Virus genome (UHGV): UHGV-0183426
Length of the DNA stretch: 53,584 nucleotides
Source: a virus
Strand: one strand, 5' to 3'
Shown here: in pieces, positions 2,712-35,128 of the stretch
Layout of the letters: each line of letters opens with the position of its first letter
Numbering within the stretch: position 1 is the stretch's first letter
Program-made: the position numbers and the translations under genes
The notes under the pieces: model-generated
What the model was told of the DNA's origin: nothing
The model's input: only the letters and a program-made list of their open reading frames with translations
Database searches by the model: none

Positions 2712-3060
2712 AAAACCACCCCGATTATTTTTGATTCTCTGTTTCGTTCAGCCTTTCGGCGTGTCCGGCCCTTAGCCAATGTTCTAAGCATTCGTTGCAC
2801 TCGTTACAGCCTCCTTTCTTCGTGCTGCATACATTGCACATTGCACGCATAACGCTTTCTCGTTCATAGTCGTCATGCCATTGGTAATTATCAAAAGGCA
2901 TAATGCTCTCTCCTTTTCAGGTGATTTCTACGCATTTCAGCGCTGCCGGATTTTTAAAGAGCATTTTGTTTGCTTGAAGTATACAAAATGGATACGTGCT
3001 AACAAAGTGTAAAGCGCCATTATGTGACATTCATCACACAATGACGCCATTTTGTAAACT

Positions 3061-6305: not shown

Positions 6306-6584
6306 TTAAGCCTCAATAACACCGTAATCAAACGTCCCTAAATACCGTTCTATACTTACAACCTCAATACCATCAATGCACCGTTTCCACACAGACACCT
6401 GGCTTTCATTTTCTCTGAAGTGCATATTAGAAAGCACTTCATCGGCTGGATAGCCTTTCCCAGCGACGTAGGCATCGTGACCTACGCCACCTTCTACGCA
6501 ATAAAGCATCAATTCGCGTTCCATTTCGCTTCCTCCGCACCGTAAACCTTTTGATTTTGGCTTACAAAACGGATATGCGATCAC
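6306..6584 (-). CDS. hypothetical protein (92 aa)
   Basis: ORF track. Confidence 0.4.
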   Translation of the reverse strand: MIAYPFCKPKSKGLRCGGSEMERELMLYCVEGGVGHDAYVAGKGYPADEVLSNMHFRENESQVSVWKRCIDGIEVVSIERYLGTFDYGVIEA

Positions 6585-6622
6585 AATACATAATGTATAT
6601 TTATGTAATCGGAATCACTCGG

Positions 6623-22360: not shown

Positions 22361-22449
22361 CGCAATGACTCCATTATGTTAATTAACCATACTATTTTAA
22401 CGTCTTGTCATTGCGCGGACGAACTTGTGTTTACGATATGTATTAAAAA

Positions 22450-22465
22450 CCCCGCCGTAGCGGGG
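22450..22465 (-). terminator. hairpin CCCCGCCGTAGCGGGG between J and the tail fiber gene
   Basis: GC stem plus T-run on the minus strand; near-identical to the hairpin at 29832-29847. Confidence 0.45.
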
Positions 22466-22471
22466 TTGGTG

Positions 22472-25400
22472 TTAGTCGTGTGATTCTTCCCATTTCGACC
22501 ATGTGCCGTTACTGCGACCGATAAACATAGTCGGGCAACTTAACGTAATCCCGGTGATGTTACCTGTTGACCACGGAGTGTGGATCTCGATAATAACATC
22601 GACCGTCTGATTTGTTACACCATCCCTACCGAAACAGAACATGCCGTTTGAGTTTTCGTTACCGTATTTCTTACCGACCAATACCTGAGTACCTGCTATC
22701 CAGGTATTGATCTGTGAGTTGCCGGTAGCCCCTGATAACCTTGCCTGGAACATAACGTTTTTATAAGTCCCATCGGATGTTGAGTCCACATAGCGATAAC
22801 AGAAACGCGCTACACGCTGGTTTGAGTTATAGACAGTGCTGGAATCAGGGAAAGTGTGAATAGCCACAATATCACCGACAAATTTGTTAGCCTGTACAGT
22901 CCCTTTAAACGTCCCGCTTGTGGCCTGAATCTCACCAGTAAATTTACCGTTTGTGGCGTATACCGTACCCCGAACAGTGACGTTATTGAACTCCGCGTTA
23001 CCGTTTTTGTTTAGCATCCAGCCAGCCGAACCAGATGCATAGTTGGTTGACTGGATTTGCTGCGCGATCTTCGCGGTAGTGATGGATGCGTCTTTGATCC
23101 ACGCTTCACGAATGTAGCAAGCGCCGTTAGTAACATAGAACGGGGTCTGATATGAACCGTTTGCCGCAGTCATTAACACGAAGCGGTCAACGAGGAAAAT
23201 ACACTGCGATTGCACGTTAGTTCCGCTACCAGTAAGGCCAAGTGACATACCAGTAGCGTATTTTACGCCCCGGCTGTCTGTCGCGATCTTAATAGAGTAT
23301 GATGCATCGACATCCCCCTTAAAGTCCGTTAACGCTTTCGATGTTGTCTCTATGGCTGTTGTGTTTCCGTCAATAGTTACTTTCAACTGGTCGATTCTGG
23401 TTGATAATGCCTCGTCTGCCGTTGCCATAGACTGTGACCATTCCGTGATGCTTGAGTTTACATCATCGAAAGACGCCGAGATCTGGACAAATTTTTCAGC
23501 GCTTGATGCCTCGTGAGTTGCGAGTGCCGTTGAAACATCCGTTATTTTTGCTGAAATGTTTTCATTAATATTTGCCTCAAGCGATGCTATAGCCTCCGCG
23601 CGGGCCTGGGTTTCGTCTGCTATTGCTGTGTCGATCCTTGCTATTTCCGCTTTTGTTTTTGTCTGGCCTTTCCTGTACTTCGCCTCAATAACGGTGCTCA
23701 TCTTGCTTTGCGCTATTGAGTTGTTGATAAGTGCAATCGAGGCGTTTTGCAGACTTGCTTTCGCCTGATCTATTTCGTCGCTGTTTTTATCAACCTCATT
23801 TTCAACAAGACCAAGCTCCGCACTAATTCCTGATATTGCCTGAGCGCGGGCGCTTGACTCATCAGCGATAGCTTGATCGAGACGAGAAACGCTAGCATCA
23901 GTTTTATTTTCCAGGCTGCTGATACTGGCGTTAACGTTGCTTATAGCCTCCGTTCTCGCCTGCGTTTCGGTTGCTATTGCTTTGTCTACGCGTGCTATTT
24001 CTCCTTTGATGTTTGAGTCCATCGTGCTTATTTCGGCTGTGATGGTTTCCAGTGATTCCGCTGTCGCTTTTTTCTCCTCTGCGATAACGTTGTCAATGCG
24101 GTCAATCTGCGCTTTTGTTTCGTTGCGACCTTTCTTATATTGAGCGGTAAGAGTAACCCGCGTGTTAGTTTGAGCAAGCGAGTTATTGATTAGAGCAAGC
24201 GAGGCGTTTTGTAAACTTGCTTTTGTCTGTGCCAGTTCATTGTTAACGTTTTCGTTTGATACCTCTAATGAGTCTATTCTTACCTCATGTTTGCCTATTT
24301 CATCGGCGTTTTCTTCGACTTTTTTATAAAGGTCTTCGGTGTCTTTTTTAAGTGTATCTGTGTCAGCTTTAAGATCCCTTGTAGCTATTTTAAGGTCTTC
24401 GGTAGCTCCTTCTACAATATCAGTGCGATCACCAAGATCTTTAATGTCGCTAATCATCTCCTTGAATTGCTCTGATTTCATTACATCCTTTGTAACGTAA
24501 TCAGTGATTTCGTCAAAATCCTCTGTTGGCTTACCTGATACCTCGACGAAATCAGACACACCAAAAGCATTACGAGTGCGCACATAAACGTAATAAGTAT
24601 GGCCCGTATTCATGCCGCCGAACGTCCACTGATACCCGCGCCCGGTAAACTGTGCCGACGTGGTTATTTTTGCCGGATCTGTGATCTGGTTTTCCCCTGC
24701 ATAGTAGAATTCGTATGACGTATCGGTAGTAAGTGTGGTTTTGCTAATAGGGTAAACTGTCGCCTGGAATACACCGGGAACCCAATTAACGCCGATCGGT
24801 GCTGCTGGCGCACCGATAACAAGGTCAACGATACTTTCGGCACCCTTCATGCCAGTATCATTTCTTCCTCGAACTCCTAACGAGTACGATCCGGCATCAA
24901 TACCGTAAAAATCATAACTATATTTATTGGTTTCGTAGCTTTTTACCACCGCACCATCCGTGTTATATATGCGGATCTCAAATGTCATGCGATGCGTAGT
25001 TGTCTGCGTTTCCCATGTTGCGCGGCATTGAACCGTTTCAGATCCGATGTTTACCACTTTCAGATTTTCAATATTCGGTACACGGAAGTGATTAAGCGTG
25101 TCGTTGTTGATTTCAAATACCGCGCCTTCATCGACTACTGCTTGTTTGTTAGGGTCATGTTGCGCGGCTTCGATGGTATACACGCTATTATTTTCGGTTT
25201 CGGCTACACTGGTGATTCTGCATAAAACGGGTTTTGCTGCTTCGGTTGATACAGCAAAAACAGTACCGTTTCTAATCCATGCAGGGGCCGCAGCCAGTGT
25301 GATTTTGTTCCCGTTGATACCAGTGATCTGATGTTTTTTAAATTTGCCATCGCTATCAAGCAGGCTGATAGTGTCGCCTGCCGTGATGTACTCGCTGTCA

Positions 25401-26926
25401 ACCTTATCAACTGTTATCACGTTCCCATTATTCGCCACGATACGACCGCCTAAACGCGCACCTGCGCGGTTATTGTCGAGGATCTCGATAATATCCCCTG
25501 GCGTAAAGTGAATCGCGTCACGGGCCATTTTAAATGTGAATTTTGACGGCTCGCGTTTTGCTGTTTCTATCAGCCACTTCCCAGCGCGGTGGGCTTGCCC
25601 GCGTGACGTGCACCCGAACGCCTCCAACGTGGTTTCGTTATAACCATCGCGGGCGATTAGTTCATCATCTGCTACGTATTCTTTTGATTGCTCCCAGCCG
25701 TTTTCCGGGTCAGTCCATGATACGATCACGGCATTGTAACACTCTGCAAGCGGAAGACTTGAACGAGTAAACGCGCCATCAACGACGTTTGCATTTGTAA
25801 TGGTGGCAATTGGATCTTGCGGTGCATCAATCATCACCGTAAGGCGCTGCCCGTCCCATAACGCGATACCACGGAACATACCTGCAATGTTATCCAGCAA
25901 GTCGCGTGCGCTCATTTGCTCCGTAATGTAGGCGTTGAGCGTCATGCGAGGTTCAAGGCCACCATAGCCATCATCAACCAACTGATCGCAGTATTGAGAA
26001 AGCACATACAAAGCGCCATCATCAACATCAATGTAACCAGCATGTTTAGCAAGCCCGAAGCGCTCGTTTTTAACCAGATACCGGAAAATCCACGCAGGGT
26101 TGTTGGTGTACGCTTTTTTGAATCCACCAAGCCATAATCCCGAATATGTGCGCGTTTCTGTGTTGTAGTTATCAGGCACGTCAACAATCAAGCCGCGAAG
26201 ATGATAGGTGCGGGTAGGCGTATCAGTGTACTGGTCATGGTCAATCACCGCGCCAGCTACAGCGGTATGAGGATAAGACAGATTGTCGTCTATGATTTCG
26301 CTGTAGCTACTCCACCGCGTATCATTCTGCAATAGATCGCTGTTGCTGTCTGCTGTTATGCGGCGCACGCGAATATCAAACGGTTTTTCATTAGGCGCAT
26401 CTATGATATGAGATTCAAGATACTCACCACTCTGTTTGCCTGGACCGATGGTAATGATTTTAATTTGCGACCACGTAGAAGATAATGATGGTTTAACATC
26501 AACCATCAACATAACGGATGTGTTATATTGGTTACCCTTATTATCTGACTGAACCAGAGAATCAACGCCAAGATTCAGCCTTACGCGGTTAACGTTTGGA
26601 TCTGAAACAGTCCTGATTATTGGCGTGTCGTGAGTTACCTTTGCGTTGACAATAACGGTTGACTCAATGGCATTAAAACCATTAATCGGCGATTGGTCAG
26701 CCGTGCCGTTGCGCCAGGCTATACTAACCCCCGGTATTGATGTATTCCCGTTTGCGTCAGTAACAGGCGTGTCATTAAGCATCACATCATTCAGTGGCGC
26801 TTTCTGGTTTACCGGACCGTATATCGGCCCTTCGCTGAGAATATCTAAAACACGATAAAACTGTTTATGATACAGGTTATCGTTTAATAATACTGGTGTT
26901 TTGGTTTTGCCGCCGCCGCTACTCAT
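22472..26926 (-). CDS. J: tail tip / host specificity protein J-like (central tail fiber)
   Basis: 1484 aa; follows I; N-terminal two-thirds typical of lambda J; extended coiled-coil region with internal repeats, then a distal domain. Confidence 0.9.
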   Translation of the reverse strand: MSSGGGKTKTPVLLNDNLYHKQFYRVLDILSEGPIYGPVNQKAPLNDVMLNDTPVTDANGNTSIPGVSIAWRNGTADQSPINGFNAIESTVIVNAKVTHDTPIIRTVSDPNVNRVRLNLGVDSLVQSDNKGNQYNTSVMLMVDVKPSLSSTWSQIKIITIGPGKQSGEYLESHIIDAPNEKPFDIRVRRITADSNSDLLQNDTRWSSYSEIIDDNLSYPHTAVAGAVIDHDQYTDTPTRTYHLRGLIVDVPDNYNTETRTYSGLWLGGFKKAYTNNPAWIFRYLVKNERFGLAKHAGYIDVDDGALYVLSQYCDQLVDDGYGGLEPRMTLNAYITEQMSARDLLDNIAGMFRGIALWDGQRLTVMIDAPQDPIATITNANVVDGAFTRSSLPLAECYNAVIVSWTDPENGWEQSKEYVADDELIARDGYNETTLEAFGCTSRGQAHRAGKWLIETAKREPSKFTFKMARDAIHFTPGDIIEILDNNRAGARLGGRIVANNGNVITVDKVDSEYITAGDTISLLDSDGKFKKHQITGINGNKITLAAAPAWIRNGTVFAVSTEAAKPVLCRITSVAETENNSVYTIEAAQHDPNKQAVVDEGAVFEINNDTLNHFRVPNIENLKVVNIGSETVQCRATWETQTTTHRMTFEIRIYNTDGAVVKSYETNKYSYDFYGIDAGSYSLGVRGRNDTGMKGAESIVDLVIGAPAAPIGVNWVPGVFQATVYPISKTTLTTDTSYEFYYAGENQITDPAKITTSAQFTGRGYQWTFGGMNTGHTYYVYVRTRNAFGVSDFVEVSGKPTEDFDEITDYVTKDVMKSEQFKEMISDIKDLGDRTDIVEGATEDLKIATRDLKADTDTLKKDTEDLYKKVEENADEIGKHEVRIDSLEVSNENVNNELAQTKASLQNASLALINNSLAQTNTRVTLTAQYKKGRNETKAQIDRIDNVIAEEKKATAESLETITAEISTMDSNIKGEIARVDKAIATETQARTEAISNVNASISSLENKTDASVSRLDQAIADESSARAQAISGISAELGLVENEVDKNSDEIDQAKASLQNASIALINNSIAQSKMSTVIEAKYRKGQTKTKAEIARIDTAIADETQARAEAIASLEANINENISAKITDVSTALATHEASSAEKFVQISASFDDVNSSITEWSQSMATADEALSTRIDQLKVTIDGNTTAIETTSKALTDFKGDVDASYSIKIATDSRGVKYATGMSLGLTGSGTNVQSQCIFLVDRFVLMTAANGSYQTPFYVTNGACYIREAWIKDASITTAKIAQQIQSTNYASGSAGWMLNKNGNAEFNNVTVRGTVYATNGKFTGEIQATSGTFKGTVQANKFVGDIVAIHTFPDSSTVYNSNQRVARFCYRYVDSTSDGTYKNVMFQARLSGATGNSQINTWIAGTQVLVGKKYGNENSNGMFCFGRDGVTNQTVDVIIEIHTPWSTGNITGITLSCPTMFIGRSNGTWSKWEESHD

Positions 26927-28146: not shown

Positions 28147-28884
28147 TTAACCTACCTTGCTGGAACCAGGGAAACAGGAAATCGGTAACGGATTCGGACG
28201 CGGGAAACGCAAACGACAACCGCTTAGACGGTGGCTGCATCTGTCGGCTTTAGGATCGCTTGTCGGCTCGTCTTTATCGTTTGCTACTGGTCCGCCAGCG
28301 TACATACACCCGTCGCCTCTGTATTGCCACTGGCAAACGTCAGCAAGGATGGTGCGCCCAGGGATAACGGCCTTATCAGCATCAATTGGCGTTGACAGCT
28401 CATATTGCACCTGATCCGCTGTTTCCTCGCTCATGGCCTCCACGACGTAAAAAGATACAGCCTCAATAGATGGATCTGCATCTGGATTGCCGTTTGGGAA
28501 GTTAACGGCGTCCAGGTATTTTACTTCCACCTGGCGGCGCGTAACCTTCATGCCTCTTAGGTCGTTGAAGTCGTTATTCATCCCTGTGATTAGCCCGCCG
28601 ATATTGGCTACAACCATTTGAGGCCGCGAATAAACGCCCTCGTTTTTCATTTCGAAGCCAGTAGCCTCGATCGGGTAGCTGTTGTAAGTTAATCCCTTCC
28701 AGATAACCGGGCCGTAATAGCCATTCGCGCCGGAATGGAAGCGGATAACCTCGCCACCCATGGGCGACAAGTCCAGTTCGAACAAGTCAATCACCGCGCC
28801 CACACCAGCGTCCACGGAATCAATAATCATCTCTGTAGGTATATTGCGCATTTTCTCACCTTCTGATTTTGTGATCTGCGTCAC
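28147..28884 (-). CDS. L: minor tail protein L-like
   Basis: 245 aa; C-terminal Cys cluster (CQWQYRGDGCMYAGG...CSHRLSGCRLRF) typical of lambda gpL. Confidence 0.85.
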   Translation of the reverse strand: MTQITKSEGEKMRNIPTEMIIDSVDAGVGAVIDLFELDLSPMGGEVIRFHSGANGYYGPVIWKGLTYNSYPIEATGFEMKNEGVYSRPQMVVANIGGLITGMNNDFNDLRGMKVTRRQVEVKYLDAVNFPNGNPDADPSIEAVSFYVVEAMSEETADQVQYELSTPIDADKAVIPGRTILADVCQWQYRGDGCMYAGGPVANDKDEPTSDPKADRCSHRLSGCRLRFPRPNPLPISCFPGSSKVG

Positions 28885-28895
28885 GCTAAATCATA

Positions 28896-28905
28896 CCAAA
28901 ATGGA
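28896..28905. promoter_or_regulatory. CCAAAATGGA variant of the recurrent element between L and plus-strand island 1
   Basis: motif at the boundary where transcription direction flips. Confidence 0.3.
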
Positions 28906-28980
28906 TTGATCGCGGTTTATACAATATGTATATTTTACTCAAACGGAAGCGCAGTTAACAAAATGGCGCGGAGGTGTGAG

Positions 28981-29136
28981 ATGGCTGATAAGGTGTGGAG
29001 GTTGACGGTATTCCTGACTGATGGCAGAAAAATGACTGTAGCTCTGTATAAGGATGAAGGCGAGGCACTTACTGACGCGCTTTTACTTGCTGAAGACGAA
29101 CGCGTTTTGGGGTACAGGATCGAACTTGTCAAATGA
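28981..29136 (+). CDS. hypothetical small protein (island 1)
   Basis: ORF track 28906..29136; internal Met with GGAGG 7 nt upstream. Confidence 0.35.
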   Translation: MADKVWRLTVFLTDGRKMTVALYKDEGEALTDALLLAEDERVLGYRIELVK

Positions 29137-29148
29137 GAGGTTAACGAA

Positions 29149-29496
29149 ATGCAAAAATATAGTCTTGATGTGTGGTTAAGTGGTTGCAAGGAGTGTTTCG
29201 GATTATTTGATAGCGAAGAGGCAGCTTTGGAAGAAGGAAGGATTCTTGAATGTAGTTTAGGCCATCCAGTGAAATATGCTGCTAATCCGGTGCAGATAAT
29301 TGATGAGGTGGAAAACATGAATCCGAAAGATATTAACTTTAACGTCAATGTTGAATTTGCTGATTCTATGGATCAGGCTTGCCCTGGTGAAATACACGCA
29401 AAAGGCTTCCCGGCTGACAATCCAGAAGCAAAACGCGAATACGAAAAAGCTGCGAAAGACTTCTGCATAGATAACCTGGCCGCATTCGATAAATAA
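29149..29496 (+). CDS. hypothetical protein (115 aa, island 1)
   Basis: ORF track; AT-rich. Confidence 0.45.
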   Translation: MQKYSLDVWLSGCKECFGLFDSEEAALEEGRILECSLGHPVKYAANPVQIIDEVENMNPKDINFNVNVEFADSMDQACPGEIHAKGFPADNPEAKREYEKAAKDFCIDNLAAFDK

Positions 29497-29505
29497 GGCG
29501 GCAAC

Positions 29506-29754
29506 ATGGGGCGGCGCAATCACGGCGATTATGTGTACACGCTGAAACAGGCCGCCCGCCTCATCGGTTATCATGAGCACGAATTTATTGATTTGCTGAT
29601 TGAGCGCGGGATACTGTACCAGGTCTGTTTAACGCTGTACCCGAAAGCGAAATACCTACAGGAAAAGTTATTCATCATCATGACGGATGAAAACCAGGTT
29701 AATCATTCATTCGTCACTGATAAGGGATTGACATATTTGAAGGGGGCGTTATGA
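29506..29754 (+). CDS. hypothetical protein, possible HTH (island 1)
   Basis: 82 aa; YTLKQAARLIGYHEHEFIDLLIERG looks helix-turn-helix-like. Confidence 0.4.
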   Translation: MGRRNHGDYVYTLKQAARLIGYHEHEFIDLLIERGILYQVCLTLYPKAKYLQEKLFIIMTDENQVNHSFVTDKGLTYLKGAL

Positions 29755-29831
29755 GATGTGCGAACATTACGTTCTGGAAATGATCATTATCATTATTGGA
29801 TTGTTATGCATTCTGCTATCGACACTATAAA

Positions 29832-29856
29832 CCCCGCCGTGGCGGGGTGTTTTTTA
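29832..29856 (+). terminator. hairpin CCCCGCCGTGGCGGGG plus T-run, end of island 1
   Basis: GC stem followed by TGTTTTTT on the plus strand. Confidence 0.55.
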
Positions 29857-30066
29857 ATCGTAGGATAGAAATGCTACTTCTTTGCCATCCCAAGTCGTAC
29901 AGCCGATATATCCATCACCCATATCATGAAGATACCACGTCTCGCCGTTATCAGCTTGTACAGTTAGATCATTAATTTCATAGTCGGCAAACAATGTAAA
30001 AGCGCCAGTGCGCTCCACTACACAAAAATAAGGCATATCCCCTCCCCTAATTAATAACTTGCTCAA
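29854..30066 (-). CDS. hypothetical protein (70 aa) downstream of M
   Basis: ORF track. Confidence 0.4.
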   Translation of the reverse strand: MSKLLIRGGDMPYFCVVERTGAFTLFADYEINDLTVQADNGETWYLHDMGDGYIGCTTWDGKEVAFLSYD

Positions 30067-30400
30067 ATGTTGCGTTTAGCGTGTATAGCGGTCCGTCTTT
30101 AGTCATGCTCCAGCTACGGCAAACAAAAAGCCTTTGCACGTTATCCATTGACGGCGACCAGTAAAAAGCCTCGACCGCGCCGCGCGCCCTCAAGAATGCT
30201 TCCGCCTGGATTGCTACGTTTTCACCATCACCACATCCGGCGCTACTGCCCTTAAACACCATGGTGTAGCTATCAAGTAACGGGTTGATACCTTTAACCT
30301 GTCTTTGCTCATAACCATCGCCCAGCTTAACAACTGATACGTCCGGCTCCCTGGTCACGCTGTAGCTTCGTTGCGGCGTCCATCTGAACACTTCCGGCAT
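30047..30400 (-). CDS. M: minor tail protein M-like
   Basis: 117 aa; FRW...GDGYEQR...FL...G...FYWSP...ATFEQVIN mirrors lambda gpM. Confidence 0.8.
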   Translation of the reverse strand: MPEVFRWTPQRSYSVTREPDVSVVKLGDGYEQRQVKGINPLLDSYTMVFKGSSAGCGDGENVAIQAEAFLRARGAVEAFYWSPSMDNVQRLFVCRSWSMTKDGPLYTLNATFEQVIN

Positions 30401-30485
30401 AAAACCCCCATAAGTTACATTTTGTATATATCTTTACGCGCCTCTACGCGAAAAATGAGATCTTAATCACAATGATTATAGCTAG

Positions 30486-30497
30486 TTTACAAAATGG
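30486..30497. promoter_or_regulatory. TTTACAAAATGG element between M and plus-strand island 2
   Basis: recurrent motif at a direction-switch boundary. Confidence 0.35.
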
Positions 30498-30568
30498 CTT
30501 CACATAGTACGCAACAAGATGTATATAGAAAGCAAGAAGAAAAGCAGTACCAACGAAGGAGGCCAAAA

Positions 30569-30724
30569 ATGAAACGCTATGTAGTGGTAATGCTGAACAA
30601 CGCATTCGAACAAGTGGAAATAGCAATCGTTAAGGGGTTCGACGACGCATTCAAATACGCTCAATTCATGATGAATGCAAAAGAAGATGAATACCGTGAT
30701 TTCTTCCTGAAGGCACTCAACTAA
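30569..30724 (+). CDS. hypothetical small protein (island 2)
   Basis: ORF track 30494..30724; internal Met with AGGAGG upstream. Confidence 0.4.
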   Translation: MKRYVVVMLNNAFEQVEIAIVKGFDDAFKYAQFMMNAKEDEYRDFFLKALN

Positions 30725-30741
30725 GGATGATGGGGTGAGTT

Positions 30742-30996
30742 ATGAAACTGGTAGCGATTGATAAAAACCTGAAAGTACAGAAAAACGCACAAGACAGGAC
30801 TATCAAGAAAGGGAAGGAACTGCTTAAAGCATTTTTGAAGAAAGAGGCGCGCCCCAAAAAGTTACGTGATGGTTATGGCTTTAAATTCGACATCAACCCT
30901 GACTGGAGGCTGTTTAGCGAAGACCTAAAAGTCTGGTTAATTATCGATCATCTGGAATATAACAGGCACTGTGGAGTCAAAGGGGTGCATAAGTGA
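30742..30996 (+). CDS. hypothetical protein (84 aa, island 2)
   Basis: ORF track. Confidence 0.45.
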   Translation: MKLVAIDKNLKVQKNAQDRTIKKGKELLKAFLKKEARPKKLRDGYGFKFDINPDWRLFSEDLKVWLIIDHLEYNRHCGVKGVHK

Positions 30997-31105
30997 GGTG
31001 GGACATGGAGGACGATAAATTCACCTGGCGGGAGATCTGGAATATTTGGTTGGTGATGTTCGGCAGTGGTTACGTCGCACGTAACGGAAGATTATAGGAG
31101 GAAAA

Positions 31106-31291
31106 ATGATTATTGACGAAACAGAGTTATGTTACGGAGTTAGGTTAGATCTTGATGAGGATGGTCGGCTATGGATAACCGAACTCATGGGGACTGACAT
31201 CCTCGTAATTGACAAATCGCAGGCGACGCAACTTATCGCCGGGCTTCAAAAATTTATAGATGGCACATTTGAGAACGATCAGGAGGATTAA
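31106..31291 (+). CDS. hypothetical protein (61 aa, island 2)
   Basis: ORF track. Confidence 0.4.
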   Translation: MIIDETELCYGVRLDLDEDGRLWITELMGTDILVIDKSQATQLIAGLQKFIDGTFENDQED

Positions 31292-31293
31292 CA

Positions 31294-31581
31294 ATGGATT
31301 TAACCGTCATTGGTCACGCACTGGCTGCGGCGGCTATGCAGGTTGTTATCGGCCTGCTTACTGGTGATTATCTCACTGGCGGCCTGATTGGATGTACATT
31401 CTTTTTTGCACGCGAACACACGCAGGCTGAATATCGTTACATAGCGGAATTTTGCGGTGGAAAACGGGAAAGAATGCCGTGGTATGGCGGATTATTACCT
31501 AAAGCATGGAATATGGCTAGCGTTTGCGACTTCGCCGCACCTGTATTCCTGTGCTGTTTGATTTATATTCTCACCATGTAA
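31294..31581 (+). CDS. hypothetical membrane protein (95 aa, island 2)
   Basis: hydrophobic N- and C-terminal segments. Confidence 0.45.
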   Translation: MDLTVIGHALAAAAMQVVIGLLTGDYLTGGLIGCTFFFAREHTQAEYRYIAEFCGGKRERMPWYGGLLPKAWNMASVCDFAAPVFLCCLIYILTM

Positions 31582-31586
31582 AATAA

Positions 31587-31605
31587 AGGCCGCTTATAGC
31601 GGCCT
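31587..31605. terminator. hairpin AGGCCGC-TTAT-AGCGGCCT between island 2 and the tape measure gene
   Basis: stem-loop with T-rich flanks on both strands. Confidence 0.45.
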
Positions 31606-31610
31606 TAGTG

Positions 31611-33956
31611 TTATTTGCGGCGCGGTTGCAACATCCCGCCAGGTCTTTGCGATTCCCTTGTTATCATCTTCATTGCTACACGTTCCATTGTTGATTCAAG
31701 TCTGCGGCTGTCTTCTTCGCTAAATCCGTTTGTGGTTTGAATACTGATACTGACAGGCATACTAAAACCGCCACCGCCGCCAATATCACGACCAGGAATA
31801 ACCCTGCCGTTCTCGCCTGGGATCATATATTGGTTGCCGTTAGACGTCTGGAATAGCTCCGGCCTGTTGTGTTCCCCTACGCGGTACATATTGCCACCAA
31901 TGACGCTACCACCATTAAAGCGACCGCCGCCGAAAATTGACGTAGCCAGCGACATGATCGCAGTGAGCGCAGCCGAACCAGCCGCCGCCCAGCTACCGCC
32001 AGTTGATGCAGCCGTTGCCGCCGCCGCCGGGGCCGCCGCCGCCGCGATGCTTTCCTGAGCGGCAACCGCGCTTGCCGTTGTACTTGCTTGAGTTGCCTTG
32101 CTTTGTGTTTCCATCATGATCTGATCTGCTATCCAGTCGGCTGCTATATCAGAAAGTCTGTTGCCAATATTCCCTAGTATATTGCTCCCTAAGTTAGCAA
32201 AAACATCGCTCAATGATTGAGTACCGTTAAGCAGGCCGACAAGCGCATTGCTCATGCCACCTTTAAGGCCATTAACGCAATCACCGATCAGGCCGTTTGT
32301 CTGGCTTTGCGCCTGCCATTGCTCCCATTTCAGATCGCGGATCTGTTGCTCATAGGCTAACAATGCCTGTTTCTGTTGCGCTTCGGTAGCGCCCAGGTCG
32401 ATAAGCATTTGCTTACGGACGGCCCATTCATTTTGTACCTGCTGAATAGGGTCAACCTCGCCTTTAAGCTGATTCATCGGGCTTACTATTTGCGCCCATT
32501 TATCACGCAATTCATCTACCGGAATTTGGGCTAATTCTTCCTTCAGTTCCTTACCTATCCCTTTTTGCGCGGCGCGGTACTCAAGGAGGGTGATTTTACC
32601 CTGGGCGAATGCAGCATCAATGGCCTTGCCGTTCTCTAACGCTTTGCGCATGGCGGCGGCGTCTTTATTGTACTGGTCAGAAACGCTTATACCCTTGTCA
32701 CCAAGCGTATCCTCTTTGCTTTTCTTGCTGCCAGTCTTCTTACCCTTTTTAGGCTTATCAACTGGCTTGTCGAATCCGGTGATCTTGCCGTCGTTGGCTT
32801 CTGCCTGTTTCTGCATAAACTCATCATAAGCGGCAGTCGCGTTTTTAATGTCGTTTGCAAAAGTCATGACTTTACCGACTGTAGGGCCGAATTTCTTCTC
32901 ATTGTTGCTATTTAGTTCTTCCTTGCGCTTATCTACAACCTCCTTCATCCATTTGTAGGCGTCCATAAGTGCCTTGATTGGCGTCACCATTGCGATGATC
33001 TTCTCTGCCACCTCGCCAGCCTTCACAGCCACATCATCAAACATGTCGATGAATTCGCCACCAGCCGTTTTGAGTGTATCGAAGCAGGTTTTAGCGAATT
33101 TAGCGCCCTCACCTAACCCCTTAACGCCTTTTGTGATTAAGTCGATAGCTGAGACTACGCCATCTGATACGCCGAAAAGATCATCAAGCTGTTCAACAAG
33201 ACCCATGATTTCGACTTTAAGCTCATTGATAGCCATGCCGGATGTGCGCGGCAACTGAGCAAACTGCTCGTTTGTTTCCTGCGTAGCCGCCTGGATTGCG
33301 TTAACCATCCTTTCTGCCGTGATCTTGCCGTCCAGCATTTCGGCGCGGAACTGGCCCATAGATAACCCCATCTGACGGGCCATTGTCTGTACGATGGTCG
33401 GGGTGTTTTCAAGTAGGCTGTTAAATTCTTCAGCACGCAGCACGCCGCCGTCTATAGACTGGCGGAACTGGCGCATAGAGTTAGACATCTGTTCCGCTGA
33501 TGCGCCGCCTAACGCCCCCATTTTCTGAATAGTGCCAACCAGGTTAAGTAATTGCCCTTCCGTAGCTGACGTGTTCTTCAGTGAGATGGCAAGACCTTGC
33601 CATAGCTCGCCAGTATCCTTCAGGCTTTGCCCCGTTTCCCTGGATATTGCTTTCAGGCCGTCGAAAACCCGTCCGGCGGACTCCGCATCGCCCGTAAGCA
33701 TTTTGATTTTTACGCGAAGCATTTTTGCTTGCTCCGCCATATCCATAAATTGGCGCACAGCCTCGGCAGCAATTAGCAAATGGATAACCCTGGTCAGTGC
33801 TTTGATGGATGTTTTCAGGGTGTTTACCTGGCGGTCAGCCTGTTTTGCGCCGCGCTCTATACGGTCAAAGGCCTGGTCTGCCTGTCGTTGTGCAACGAGA
33901 AGTTGACCAGTTTTTGCATCAACTTCGTAATAAATTGTACCTACACTGGTAGCCAT
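31611..33956 (-). CDS. tail tape measure protein
   Basis: 781 aa; largely alpha-helical low-complexity composition, Gly/Ala-rich C-terminus; position between chaperone and M. Confidence 0.8.
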   Translation of the reverse strand: MATSVGTIYYEVDAKTGQLLVAQRQADQAFDRIERGAKQADRQVNTLKTSIKALTRVIHLLIAAEAVRQFMDMAEQAKMLRVKIKMLTGDAESAGRVFDGLKAISRETGQSLKDTGELWQGLAISLKNTSATEGQLLNLVGTIQKMGALGGASAEQMSNSMRQFRQSIDGGVLRAEEFNSLLENTPTIVQTMARQMGLSMGQFRAEMLDGKITAERMVNAIQAATQETNEQFAQLPRTSGMAINELKVEIMGLVEQLDDLFGVSDGVVSAIDLITKGVKGLGEGAKFAKTCFDTLKTAGGEFIDMFDDVAVKAGEVAEKIIAMVTPIKALMDAYKWMKEVVDKRKEELNSNNEKKFGPTVGKVMTFANDIKNATAAYDEFMQKQAEANDGKITGFDKPVDKPKKGKKTGSKKSKEDTLGDKGISVSDQYNKDAAAMRKALENGKAIDAAFAQGKITLLEYRAAQKGIGKELKEELAQIPVDELRDKWAQIVSPMNQLKGEVDPIQQVQNEWAVRKQMLIDLGATEAQQKQALLAYEQQIRDLKWEQWQAQSQTNGLIGDCVNGLKGGMSNALVGLLNGTQSLSDVFANLGSNILGNIGNRLSDIAADWIADQIMMETQSKATQASTTASAVAAQESIAAAAAPAAAATAASTGGSWAAAGSAALTAIMSLATSIFGGGRFNGGSVIGGNMYRVGEHNRPELFQTSNGNQYMIPGENGRVIPGRDIGGGGGFSMPVSISIQTTNGFSEEDSRRLESTMERVAMKMITRESQRPGGMLQPRRK

Positions 33957-33996
33957 GATTTAACCTCATGCAAAAATGTGATCTGTGTATCTATTT

Positions 33997-34038
33997 TATA
34001 CAAAATGGCTTTACTTCAACGACTCCATTTTGTATAAG
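33997..34038. promoter_or_regulatory. inverted pair TATACAAAATGG ... CCATTTTGTATAAG (candidate bidirectional promoter/operator)
   Basis: two copies of the recurrent motif in opposite orientation between the tape measure start and the lipoprotein island. Confidence 0.4.
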
Positions 34039-34083
34039 TAAGCCAAAGGGAAAGGTCAGTAAATCAAGTTAGCGTGGTGGGTT

Positions 34084-34743
34084 ATGAAACGGTTAGCAAA
34101 AGTGGCAATGATTGCGGCGGTATTGGGTCTGGTTGGTTGCAATGAGGATAATGAAAAAGCGCCTATAGTGACCAATCAAGAACAACAAGCATTAGCAGAG
34201 AAAAATGCTAAATGGCTTGCAGAACAACAAGCAAAACAAGCCGCATACGATGCACAGTTAGAAAAAGAAAATGCTGGTAAACAGTGGCTTGTAGTTGAAA
34301 GAAAAGATGATATGCAGGACGCAAAAAACGTATTCCTTTTTGTGAAAGCAGAACAATTCAGCGGAAGTCTTGATGCTTTCCCGACACTGAAGGCACAGGA
34401 TAAGAATAAACCGGTATTAACAATCGCTTGCCAGGGTAATAAAACAAAAATGTTCGTAGCATGGTCACACCATGTAACTGACGCCGGGGACACTACTTAT
34501 ATTAACTACCGGATCGGCGTTCACAAAGCTGTAGCTACTGAGTGGGGGCGGTCAACTAATTATAAAGCTCTTGGATTATGGGATGGCAAAAAAGCCATCC
34601 CAATGATTAAAAAAATGGTTAACGAAAAACAATTCATCATTGAAGTAGTGCCGGAAGCTGGCGACATTGAGAAAGCAGTGTTTAACATTGATGGTCTTTA
34701 TAACCACATCGACAAAGTGAAAAACGCTTGCAACTGGAATTAA
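34084..34743 (+). CDS. lipoprotein (219 aa), moron
   Basis: signal peptide with lipobox LGLVGC; AT-rich; opposite strand to the tail genes. Confidence 0.6.
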   Translation: MKRLAKVAMIAAVLGLVGCNEDNEKAPIVTNQEQQALAEKNAKWLAEQQAKQAAYDAQLEKENAGKQWLVVERKDDMQDAKNVFLFVKAEQFSGSLDAFPTLKAQDKNKPVLTIACQGNKTKMFVAWSHHVTDAGDTTYINYRIGVHKAVATEWGRSTNYKALGLWDGKKAIPMIKKMVNEKQFIIEVVPEAGDIEKAVFNIDGLYNHIDKVKNACNWN

Positions 34744-34753
34744 GGGGTAAATC

Positions 34754-35128
34754 ATGAAAAACATAATCAAAGCGGCTCTCATTGGTGTTATGGCTTTAGC
34801 TCTTACAGGGTGCGCAAGATCAACTGATTTCGTTAAGTTAGCTGATAAAAAATTGCAAGTTGGAATGACTTGTGAGCAAGTGAATAAAATAATGGGGGAA
34901 CCACAAAGAATCGAGCATGACGGTAATTATAGTTATCACGTATGGTATTCAGTAACCAGCACGATAGGATTTACTTACATGGATGTTGAAGAATTATCCC
35001 CTTCAAGGGTTATCGCAAAGTTTGATAACTGCATCCTAAAAGAATGGAAAGATCGCAGTAAGGCAAAGTCTGTATACAATACAATCACACACAGTTCACC
35101 AGGTACAGCAATTAAAGATTTCAATTAG
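34754..35128 (+). CDS. lipoprotein, BamE/SmpA-OmlA-like (124 aa), moron
   Basis: lipobox LALTGC; ...LQVGMTCEQVNKIMGEPQ... pattern reminiscent of the OmlA/BamE fold. Confidence 0.5.
   Translation: MKNIIKAALIGVMALALTGCARSTDFVKLADKKLQVGMTCEQVNKIMGEPQRIEHDGNYSYHVWYSVTSTIGFTYMDVEELSPSRVIAKFDNCILKEWKDRSKAKSVYNTITHSSPGTAIKDFN

Follow-up and report, generated by a model that had tools for sequence, protein, structure and literature searches.

The window analysed here is a stretch of viral DNA of 53,584 nucleotides (UHGV virus genome UHGV-0183426), which represents a complete 53.6-kb genome of the mEpimmI group of temperate coliphages, with mEp021 as archetype, oriented opposite to the GenBank entry of mEp021. 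Within its minus-strand late tail genes, between L and M, lies a convergent plus-strand island of four small genes (28981-29829, island 1), an autonomous accessory operon that is conserved in the mEpimmI family. Judging from the sequence, we put a probability of roughly 55% on the reading that island 1 is an early operon controlled by the phage repressor. The CI-like repressor of the prophage would bind 28918-28932 and keep the operon off in the lysogen, and the operon would fire alongside the early promoters right after infection or induction. Later, antiterminated late transcription, running from M toward L, would meet the operon head-on and silence it. By analogy, and with less weight, the products may target the host or influence the choice between lysis and lysogeny in the early lytic phase. 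A preliminary description of this DNA had considered expression in the lysogen plausible; the opposite is predicted here, because the best operator match of the genome covers the -10 element and the promoter is paralogous to the early promoter.

Promoter, recurrent motif and predicted operator

The region between L and the first island gene (open reading frame 1, ORF1) spans 129 bp and is almost invariant among relatives. It contains a predicted sigma-70-type promoter (28906..28934, plus strand), with the -35 element TTGATC at 28906-28911, a 17-bp spacer and the -10 element TATATT at 28929-28934, and with the transcription start predicted at about 28941; this promoter is near-invariant in 10 relatives. 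A perfect 15-bp palindrome, TATACAATATGTATA (28918..28932), overlaps the spacer and the -10 element and is the predicted operator of the CI-like repressor, with TTTACAATATGTATA as its counterpart in relatives. The recurrent motif that the preliminary description had placed at the island boundary is indeed there and is strongly over-represented in the genome, with CAAAATGG found 16 times in the window (2.4 expected) and ACAAAATGG 14 times (0.56 expected). Copy 1 of the motif (ATACCAAAATGGATT, 28893..28907, at 28897, plus strand) abuts the -35 element, while copy 2 (GTTAACAAAATGGCG, 28954..28968, at 28959, plus strand) is located in the 5' leader, directly upstream of the ORF1 Shine-Dalgarno sequence. 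The possibility that the motif is itself a -35 or -10 element was rejected, as the spacing of the hexamers is inconsistent across copies.

Exactly four sites in the genome combine, with such offset and quality, ACAAAATGG, one nucleotide, a -35 element, 17 bp and a -10 element: the early promoter (11114, minus strand, TTGACT/TATATT), located just downstream of the CI-like repressor gene, island 1, and two further islands (islands 2 and 3, at 30489 and 34000). A fifth, weaker case of this promoter cassette occurs at 51177. The early-promoter and island promoter regions share a single alignable cassette some 90 bp long and, on this alignment, the island 1 promoter is a paralogue of the repressor-adjacent early promoter, as are those of islands 2 and 3. 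Apart from short A/T-rich stretches, the motif is also the sole 12-mer (at most two mismatches) common to both regulatory regions that flank the repressor gene.

Operators outside the family were sought via repressors with a related DNA-binding domain. The recognition helix reads TKGGLSHWLN here and TKGAVSHWLN in Erwinia phage Midgardsormr38 and Enterobacter phage ENT1, and that of Salmonella phage L c2 is similar; the helix pattern of this repressor clade is T(K/Q)G..(S/G)HWLN, and its operator pattern is a 15-bp dyad resembling TATAC(A/G)-N3-(T/C)GTATA. In each out-group phage, the cI-cro intergenic region contains three sites resembling TATAC(A/G)-N3-TGTAT, such as TATACAAAATGTGTC in Midgardsormr38. 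A position weight matrix (PWM) was built exclusively from 11 sites of the three out-group phages, which were read from sequence rather than mapped experimentally. On the window, this PWM gave 9 sites of at least 13 bits (0.96 expected), and the top match in the genome was the island palindrome at 28918-28932, with 18.4 bits, a score reached in 0.7% of simulated genomes. A simpler count of 9/12 matches to TATACA-N3-TGTATA gave 46 sites against 33 expected, a modest enrichment; the out-group PWM was far more discriminating. On the out-group comparison, we conclude that the recurrent motif is a member of the operator family of the CI-like repressor. At island 1, as at islands 2 and 3 and the early promoter, two sites lie 25 bp apart. 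The upstream one at island 1 is motif copy 1, which occupies the same position as the good operator of the early promoter but is a poor match to the operator PWM, with only 0.2 bits. In relatives L012-L014, both motif copies read ACAAAACG; a concerted change of the motif across islands was not seen in L012-L015, where ACAAAACG is found in island 1 only, and co-evolution could therefore not be demonstrated.

The same promoter region bears on a possible but rather doubtful alternative, in which the island is a moron expressed in the lysogen. Its promoter would be active in the prophage, the motif would be an UP-like or activator element, and the products would serve superinfection exclusion, defence or a stabilised lysogeny, for instance through a KilAC protein damping RecA/SOS. 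Consistent with this, the motif lies at about -45 to -37 and resembles the A-tract of a proximal UP element, and lambda CI activates P_RM from a comparable position. In contrast, a perfect operator-type palindrome lies on the -10 element, where a bound protein should exclude RNA polymerase, and the promoter is paralogous to an early lytic promoter that is necessarily off in lysogens.

Upstream of the promoter, a CRP-like dyad (28870..28885; TGTGATCTGCGTCACG) with one mismatch to TGTGA-N6-TCACA is centred at about -63.5 from the predicted start and overlaps the minus-strand 5' leader of L. Relatives retain the dyad, and in two lineages (L006 and L012-L015; TGTGATCTGCATCACA in L012-L014) it has no mismatch to the consensus and would be centred at -61.5 (L013 lineage). 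The dyad may add a host input to the promoter, and its conservation, which suggests input from host physiology, also speaks for expression in the prophage. We regard it as unlikely that the island is a constitutive or cyclic AMP (cAMP)-CRP-modulated unit that is independent of immunity and active in both states, with the palindrome as a by-product of cassette duplication. The conserved dyad and the finding that all four CRP-like sites with at most one mismatch in the window are no more than about 50 bp from a motif copy would fit such a unit. However, CRP-like matches with at most two mismatches are at chance level in the window (23 against 22.5 expected), the centre at about -63.5 is off the canonical class I phase, and the dyad bases belong to the 5' leader of L and are possibly conserved for that; such a unit would also leave the best operator match of the genome, on the -10 element, unexplained.

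Genes and products of the island

The island contains ORF1 (28981..29136, 51 amino acids [aa]), ORF2 (29149..29496, 115 aa), ORF3 (29506..29754, 82 aa) and ORF4 (29755..29829, 24 aa), all on the plus strand. The first three agree exactly with the coordinates given in the preliminary description, which had overlooked the fourth, and they carry ribosome-binding sites of their own, as had been stated (Shine-Dalgarno sequences GGAGGTG, GAGAGG and AAGG, respectively). The genes are tightly spaced, with gaps of 12 nt between ORF1 and ORF2 and 9 nt between ORF2 and ORF3; ORF4 begins directly past the ORF3 stop codon and ends 2 nt before the terminator stem. Their guanine-cytosine (GC) content is lower than that of the flanks, but the AT-richness noted earlier is only modest (41-45% in the island against 49-55% in L and M), and the GC skew changes sign across the island.

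In a comparison of ten relatives, the ratio of nonsynonymous to synonymous divergence (dN/dS) was 0.24 for ORF1, 0.22 for ORF2 and 0.10 for ORF3, compared with 0.06 for M, 0.03 for L and 0.10 for a 61-aa minus-strand ORF beside M; ORF1-3 are thus under purifying selection. In the plus frames, which are free of stops, the ratio of nonsynonymous to synonymous polymorphism (pN/pS) was lowest and third-position variation was in excess, while the antisense frames contained stops or had pN/pS near or above 1, with one exception. For ORF4, comparison of the window with relative L009 revealed differences at 13.5 of 16 synonymous sites and 5.5 of 53 nonsynonymous sites, such that synonymous change is saturated and the peptide is kept. 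It is very improbable that the ORFs are antisense shadows of the tail operon or tail-assembly components. Antisense stretches of 111-155 aa are open across the island in all relatives, and the pN/pS of the exceptional antisense frame comes near the plus-frame value of ORF1. However, this low value is a known artefact, because this frame and the plus frame have their wobble positions in common; the antisense frame is also interrupted by stops in ORF2 and ORF3 and lacks homologues, whereas the plus ORFs have ribosome-binding sites, conserved boundaries, a hidden Markov model match to KilAC and confident folds. The frame test speaks for the plus strand, and the island is not a structural tail component.

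ORF3, the best-conserved gene of the island, encodes a stand-alone KilAC/ANT domain (PF03374; 28.7 bits with a gathering cut-off of 25.3, E 1.8e-6), with residues 10-79 aligned to positions 23-102 of the 108-position profile. It is named KilAC domain protein in RefSeq and putative antirepressor in mEp021/MagusPhagus. Neither ORF3 nor any adjoining ORF matches the AntA/AntB, Bro-N or pRha N-terminal domains, and a sequence search of the PDB gave a chance-level match only. Structure prediction with AlphaFold2, a check proposed in the preliminary description, was confident for ORF3 (predicted local distance difference test [pLDDT] 82) and for the N-terminal domain of ORF2 (pLDDT about 90). By analogy, the ORF3 product may be a kil-type or SOS/RecA-modulating effector. 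The KilA/ANT domain of phi11 Gp07 alone causes growth inhibition and filamentation of E. coli (PMC5944126), and for Listeria AriS the ANT/KilAC domain is by itself sufficient to inhibit SOS (PMC9043618). Both proteins share PF03374 with ORF3 but differ in having an N-terminal AntA/AntB or Bro-N domain and in coming from early regions of Firmicutes phages; ORF3, judged by its E value to the family model, is a distant member and consists of this domain alone. An effector of this type would be harmful or destabilising in the lysogen and would therefore have to be repressed there; the growth inhibition by KilA-type domains upon expression (PMC5944126) likewise argues against expression in the prophage.

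ORF1 and ORF2 encode orphan small proteins. The pattern of ORF1 (phrog_29559), read from its sequence alone, is strand-strand-helix-strand, and its homologues are restricted to E. coli and E. coli phages; the name 'transporter', which many of them carry at NCBI, finds no backing in Pfam, NCBIfam or PHROG annotation, and the 51-aa protein looks soluble. In ORF2, the N-terminal domain is hypervariable and of strand-strand-helix-strand type, and the C-terminal tail hardly varies (consensus …SMDQxCPGEIHAKGFPADDPEAKREYEKAAKDFCIDNL…); its profile, searched exhaustively against 1.84 billion representative proteins, returned 14 small proteins only, and no significant fold match was found in the PDB. 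When ORF1 and the ORF2 N-terminal domain were tested for a relation to DUF7336, Foldseek against BFVD gave weak matches (E at least 5.7e-3, target template modelling score 0.6-0.8) to phage proteins of about 55 aa, some of them named DUF7336, while Pfam had no match at E≤1 for either. Neither ORF1 nor ORF2 nor the additional ORFs found in relatives had a match in Pfam, NCBIfam or PADLOC, and PHROGs returned unnamed families only. Paralogy of ORF1 and the ORF2 N-terminal domain found no support, as their profile comparison with hhalign was not significant, and ORF1 showed no similarity to the 51-aa first gene of island 2. In the divergent lineage L012-L014 (3413/3473-3991), a single ORF of 172-192 aa joins an ORF1-like domain in frame with ORF2, and this fusion suggests that the two proteins act together. 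By analogy, they may constitute a fast-evolving binding pair.

ORF4 encodes a hydrophobic single-helix peptide, MCEHYVLEMIIIIIGLLCILLSTL, with features of type I toxin-like peptides (less than 60 aa, one membrane helix); by analogy, it may act at the inner membrane. The type I pattern further includes a cis or trans antisense RNA, but no RNA family matched, and Rfam gave no credible result over 28700-31700. The ORF4 slot is variable: it holds a different one-helix peptide of 38-45 aa in mEp021, L007 and L008, a 67-aa ORF in strain N25, and nothing in strain LSU61. One-helix peptides in a variable slot are reminiscent of known exclusion proteins, and this counts in favour of a moron active in the lysogen, as does the gene content of relatives, which have 3 to 5 annotated plus-strand ORFs, with an alternative ORF1 allele and, in some, an optional ORF of 75-93 aa between ORF2 and ORF3. 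In contrast, matches to exclusion or defence proteins are absent in PADLOC, Pfam and NCBIfam. At E≤0.1, PADLOC-DB gave zero matches for ORF1-3, the 61-aa minus-strand ORF and the extra ORFs of relatives, and the defence role once proposed as a candidate thus gained no PADLOC model among ORF1-3.

The operon ends at an intrinsic terminator (29831..29855, plus strand), ACCCCGCC-GTGG-GGCGGGGT followed by GTTTTTT, with its stem at 29831-29848. The preliminary description had called it strong and rho-independent, in agreement with a 7-bp stem with 6 GC pairs, a T-run and a fold energy of -14.1 kcal/mol; its minus-strand version has a TTTA tail only. The terminator region (29826-29866) is 78% identical to a copy located after J (22444-22484), both being members of the repeat family D9 hairpin cassette.

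The placement of the island between L and M also stands, except that a 61-aa minus-strand ORF (29854..30039; phrog_3249) separates it from M. This ORF lies directly downstream of M and converges on the island terminator. It is found in all relatives examined apart from the deletion variant MS 21-1, which has lost it along with the island, and is unannotated in several RefSeq records. In lambda, M and L are contiguous, and lambda is not known to have a counterpart of the 61-aa ORF. The surrounding minus-strand tail genes are J (22472-26926), then I and K between J and L, L (28147-28851/28884; PF05100) and M (30047-30400; PF05939), and next to them comes the tape-measure gene (31611-33956). An HNH endonuclease gene occurs between tail genes I and J in mEp021 (L002 512-1078) and is absent from the window and from MagusPhagus.

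Distribution of the island and dispersed sites

The island region of the window has 84-91% DNA identity to that of MagusPhagus and of mEp010, 013, 021, 044, 515 and 554. The mEpimmI (mEp021-like) family was described in PMC11893012, in which a KilAC-like protein is among the core proteins of a manual pangenome analysis. In mEp021 the locus carries annotation but no comment (genes 71-74; mEp021_71 to _74, MH706966). There and in MagusPhagus (PP925836), the genes have the position, orientation and order seen in the window, and mEp021 differs in an extra ORF, gp72, and in a 45-aa peptide in place of the 24-aa one. A keyword search of the main text of PMC11893012 found no named operators and no discussion of the regulation or function of the island, with the KilAC-like protein mentioned only as a core protein.

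The L-M region was found in 35 of 5,426 complete E. coli genomes, in 34 of which ORF3 is kept beside L. The island is nearly universal in the phage family rather than sporadic. Strain MS 21-1 is the sole genome without it and retains the regulatory region up to GTTAACAAAAT, which is followed by the end of M. The deletion comprises 1,131 bp, with a 2-bp microhomology at the junction and its left breakpoint at motif copy 2. From the start codon of the 61-aa ORF on, the right flank of MS 21-1 is 100% identical to an island-bearing relative; MS 21-1 therefore represents a recent secondary deletion, and its interpretation as an ancestral empty site was rejected. Because the only genome without the island is such a deletion, the island is core-like in the family. 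No ancestral empty L-M site was seen among the 35 genomes, and the divergent island variant was not found in complete E. coli genomes.

Island 2 (30401-31606) occupies the opposite strand in the interval from M to the tape-measure gene. A CRP-like site, TGAGATCTTAATCACA (30456-30471), accompanies its promoter cassette at 30489 (TTCACA-17-TATATA). The island encodes a 51-aa ORF (30569-30724), a ParE-like toxin (30742-30996; PF24732), a 61-aa ORF and a hydrophobic-looking 95-aa ORF, and ends in a bidirectional terminator (31586-31606). Island 3 (33957-35128), likewise on the opposite strand, is located upstream of the tape-measure gene, and its -35-flanking and -10-overlapping sites come from two motif copies in inverted orientation (34000 and 34025), TATACAAAATGG-N16-CCATTTTGTATA. 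Its genes encode a VasI-like protein (34084-34743; PF11319) and a protein of 124 aa that weakly matches BamE and DUF7738.

Further sites are dispersed through the genome. At 2926-3060, inverted motif copies (2983, plus; 3047, minus) surround a perfect dyad, TGTGACATTCATCACA (3023-3038), which lies inside a hairpin annotated TERM_4 at the equivalent position of mEp021. A boxA-like GCTCTTTAAAAA occurs just upstream of this dyad on the minus strand, and the region forms an inverted repeat with 12038-12074; 2926-3060 and 12038-12074 are probably the nutR2 and nutL sites. A further plus-strand cassette of this type at 6563-6605, ACAAAACGG with TATGCG-16-TATATT, contains the operator match that ranks second in the genome (AATACATAATGTATA, 6585-6599, 18.2 bits). 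It lies antisense inside the minus-strand early operon and is conserved in mEp021, and it may serve as a promoter for antisense transcription or as a roadblock formed by the repressor. At 51144-51180, between the post-Q small genes and the lysis genes, an inverted motif pair (ACAAAATGGCA…TGCCATTTTGT) accompanies a possible minus-strand promoter, TTGTTT-17-TATAAA. The exact motif is not conserved there in mEp021, and the region may be a candidate late promoter. Further PWM matches of 13.7-16.1 bits occur at 10424, 20741, 22430, 30414 and 43584, at least two of which (20741 and 43584) fall within spans of long ORFs.

A tentative extension, quite possible in our view, is that the CI-type repressor controls, in addition to the two early promoters next to its gene, at least three paralogous early promoters that run backwards in the tail operon (those of the islands at 28981-29829, 30494-31581 and 34084-35128), together with further dispersed sites, in a distributed immunity like that of P1 or L5. 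The islands would then be immediate-early effector operons encoding the KilAC protein, the ParE-like toxin and membrane peptides. Because the island units converge on late transcription, they may also serve as a built-in timer, with the synthesis of L, K, I and J delayed until antiterminated late transcription overrides them.

Comparison with known systems and implications

Lambdoid morons, such as HK97 gp15 and lambda bor and lom, are extra promoter-gene-terminator units among late or tail genes, with lower GC and small membrane proteins as products, and classical morons are transcribed in the repressed prophage. Island 1 resembles them in its own promoter and terminator, both of which are sequence predictions, and in its distinct base composition; these features, together with its opposite orientation, also support expression of the island as a moron in the lysogen. 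It differs from lambdoid morons in the operator predicted on its -10 element and in being core to its family rather than sporadic. The island thus fits a moron structurally, whereas prophage expression, one of the defining traits, is argued against by features of its sequence.

The predicted regulation of the island, by analogy, resembles the dispersed operons of P1, kilA included, and, to a lesser degree, P22 immI and the stoperators of L5. In P22 immI (mnt-arc-ant), an antirepressor-type module is located in the late-gene region, with a tightly repressed P_ant under Mnt and Arc, not c2. The likeness lies in a late-region regulatory module with its own promoter, and the difference in that the island encodes no Mnt/Arc-type regulators. 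L5 and other Cluster A phages have many short stoperators, dispersed and largely intergenic, at which a repressor that is not CI-like blocks elongation; in the window, the best site of the island falls on a promoter, and the orientation of the sites varies. The operator of P1 C1 is a different one. In P1 (kilA-repL), one immunity repressor acts at scattered sites on several early operons, one of which encodes the founding KilA protein, and the arrangement proposed here would be alike, with the differences that C1 is unrelated to CI/LexA-type repressors and that ORF3 corresponds to the C-terminal KilA domain only. Expression of P1 kilA is under C1 control and is switched on in the lytic cycle (PMC4713147). 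A paper on the Gifsy antirepressors (PMC3121763) was considered and offered no tail-operon parallel.

Several points weigh against control of the island by the repressor. Motif copies 1 and 2 score poorly on the palindromic PWM (0.2 and -4.3 bits), and the ACAAAATGG core is strictly conserved yet asymmetric, an uncommon trait in a site for a dimeric repressor of the CI type. The sites at the repressor gene score 13.4 (beside the early promoter), 8.9 and 5.3 bits, below the 18.4 bits of the island. In principle, a repressor bound just 5' of the -35 element might act as an activator, and repressor binding itself is predicted from out-group operators. Moreover, the sibling islands with the same promoter encode the ParE-like toxin, the VasI-like protein and the protein with a weak BamE/DUF7738-like match, a cargo more typical of morons expressed in the prophage, and the function of the KilAC domain is extrapolated from distant two-domain proteins.

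Opposite-strand islands in tail operons are routinely called lysogenic-conversion morons, and the sequence of island 1 points instead to wiring by the immunity repressor. If this holds true, it would define an operator set for a widespread gut coliphage family, whose operators go unnamed in the searched parts of PMC11893012, and the CI-type repressor would run a dispersed regulon. The orphan protein pair, the KilAC protein and the 24-aa peptide would then be candidate early effectors of host takeover or SOS modulation, rather than genes of benefit to the host.

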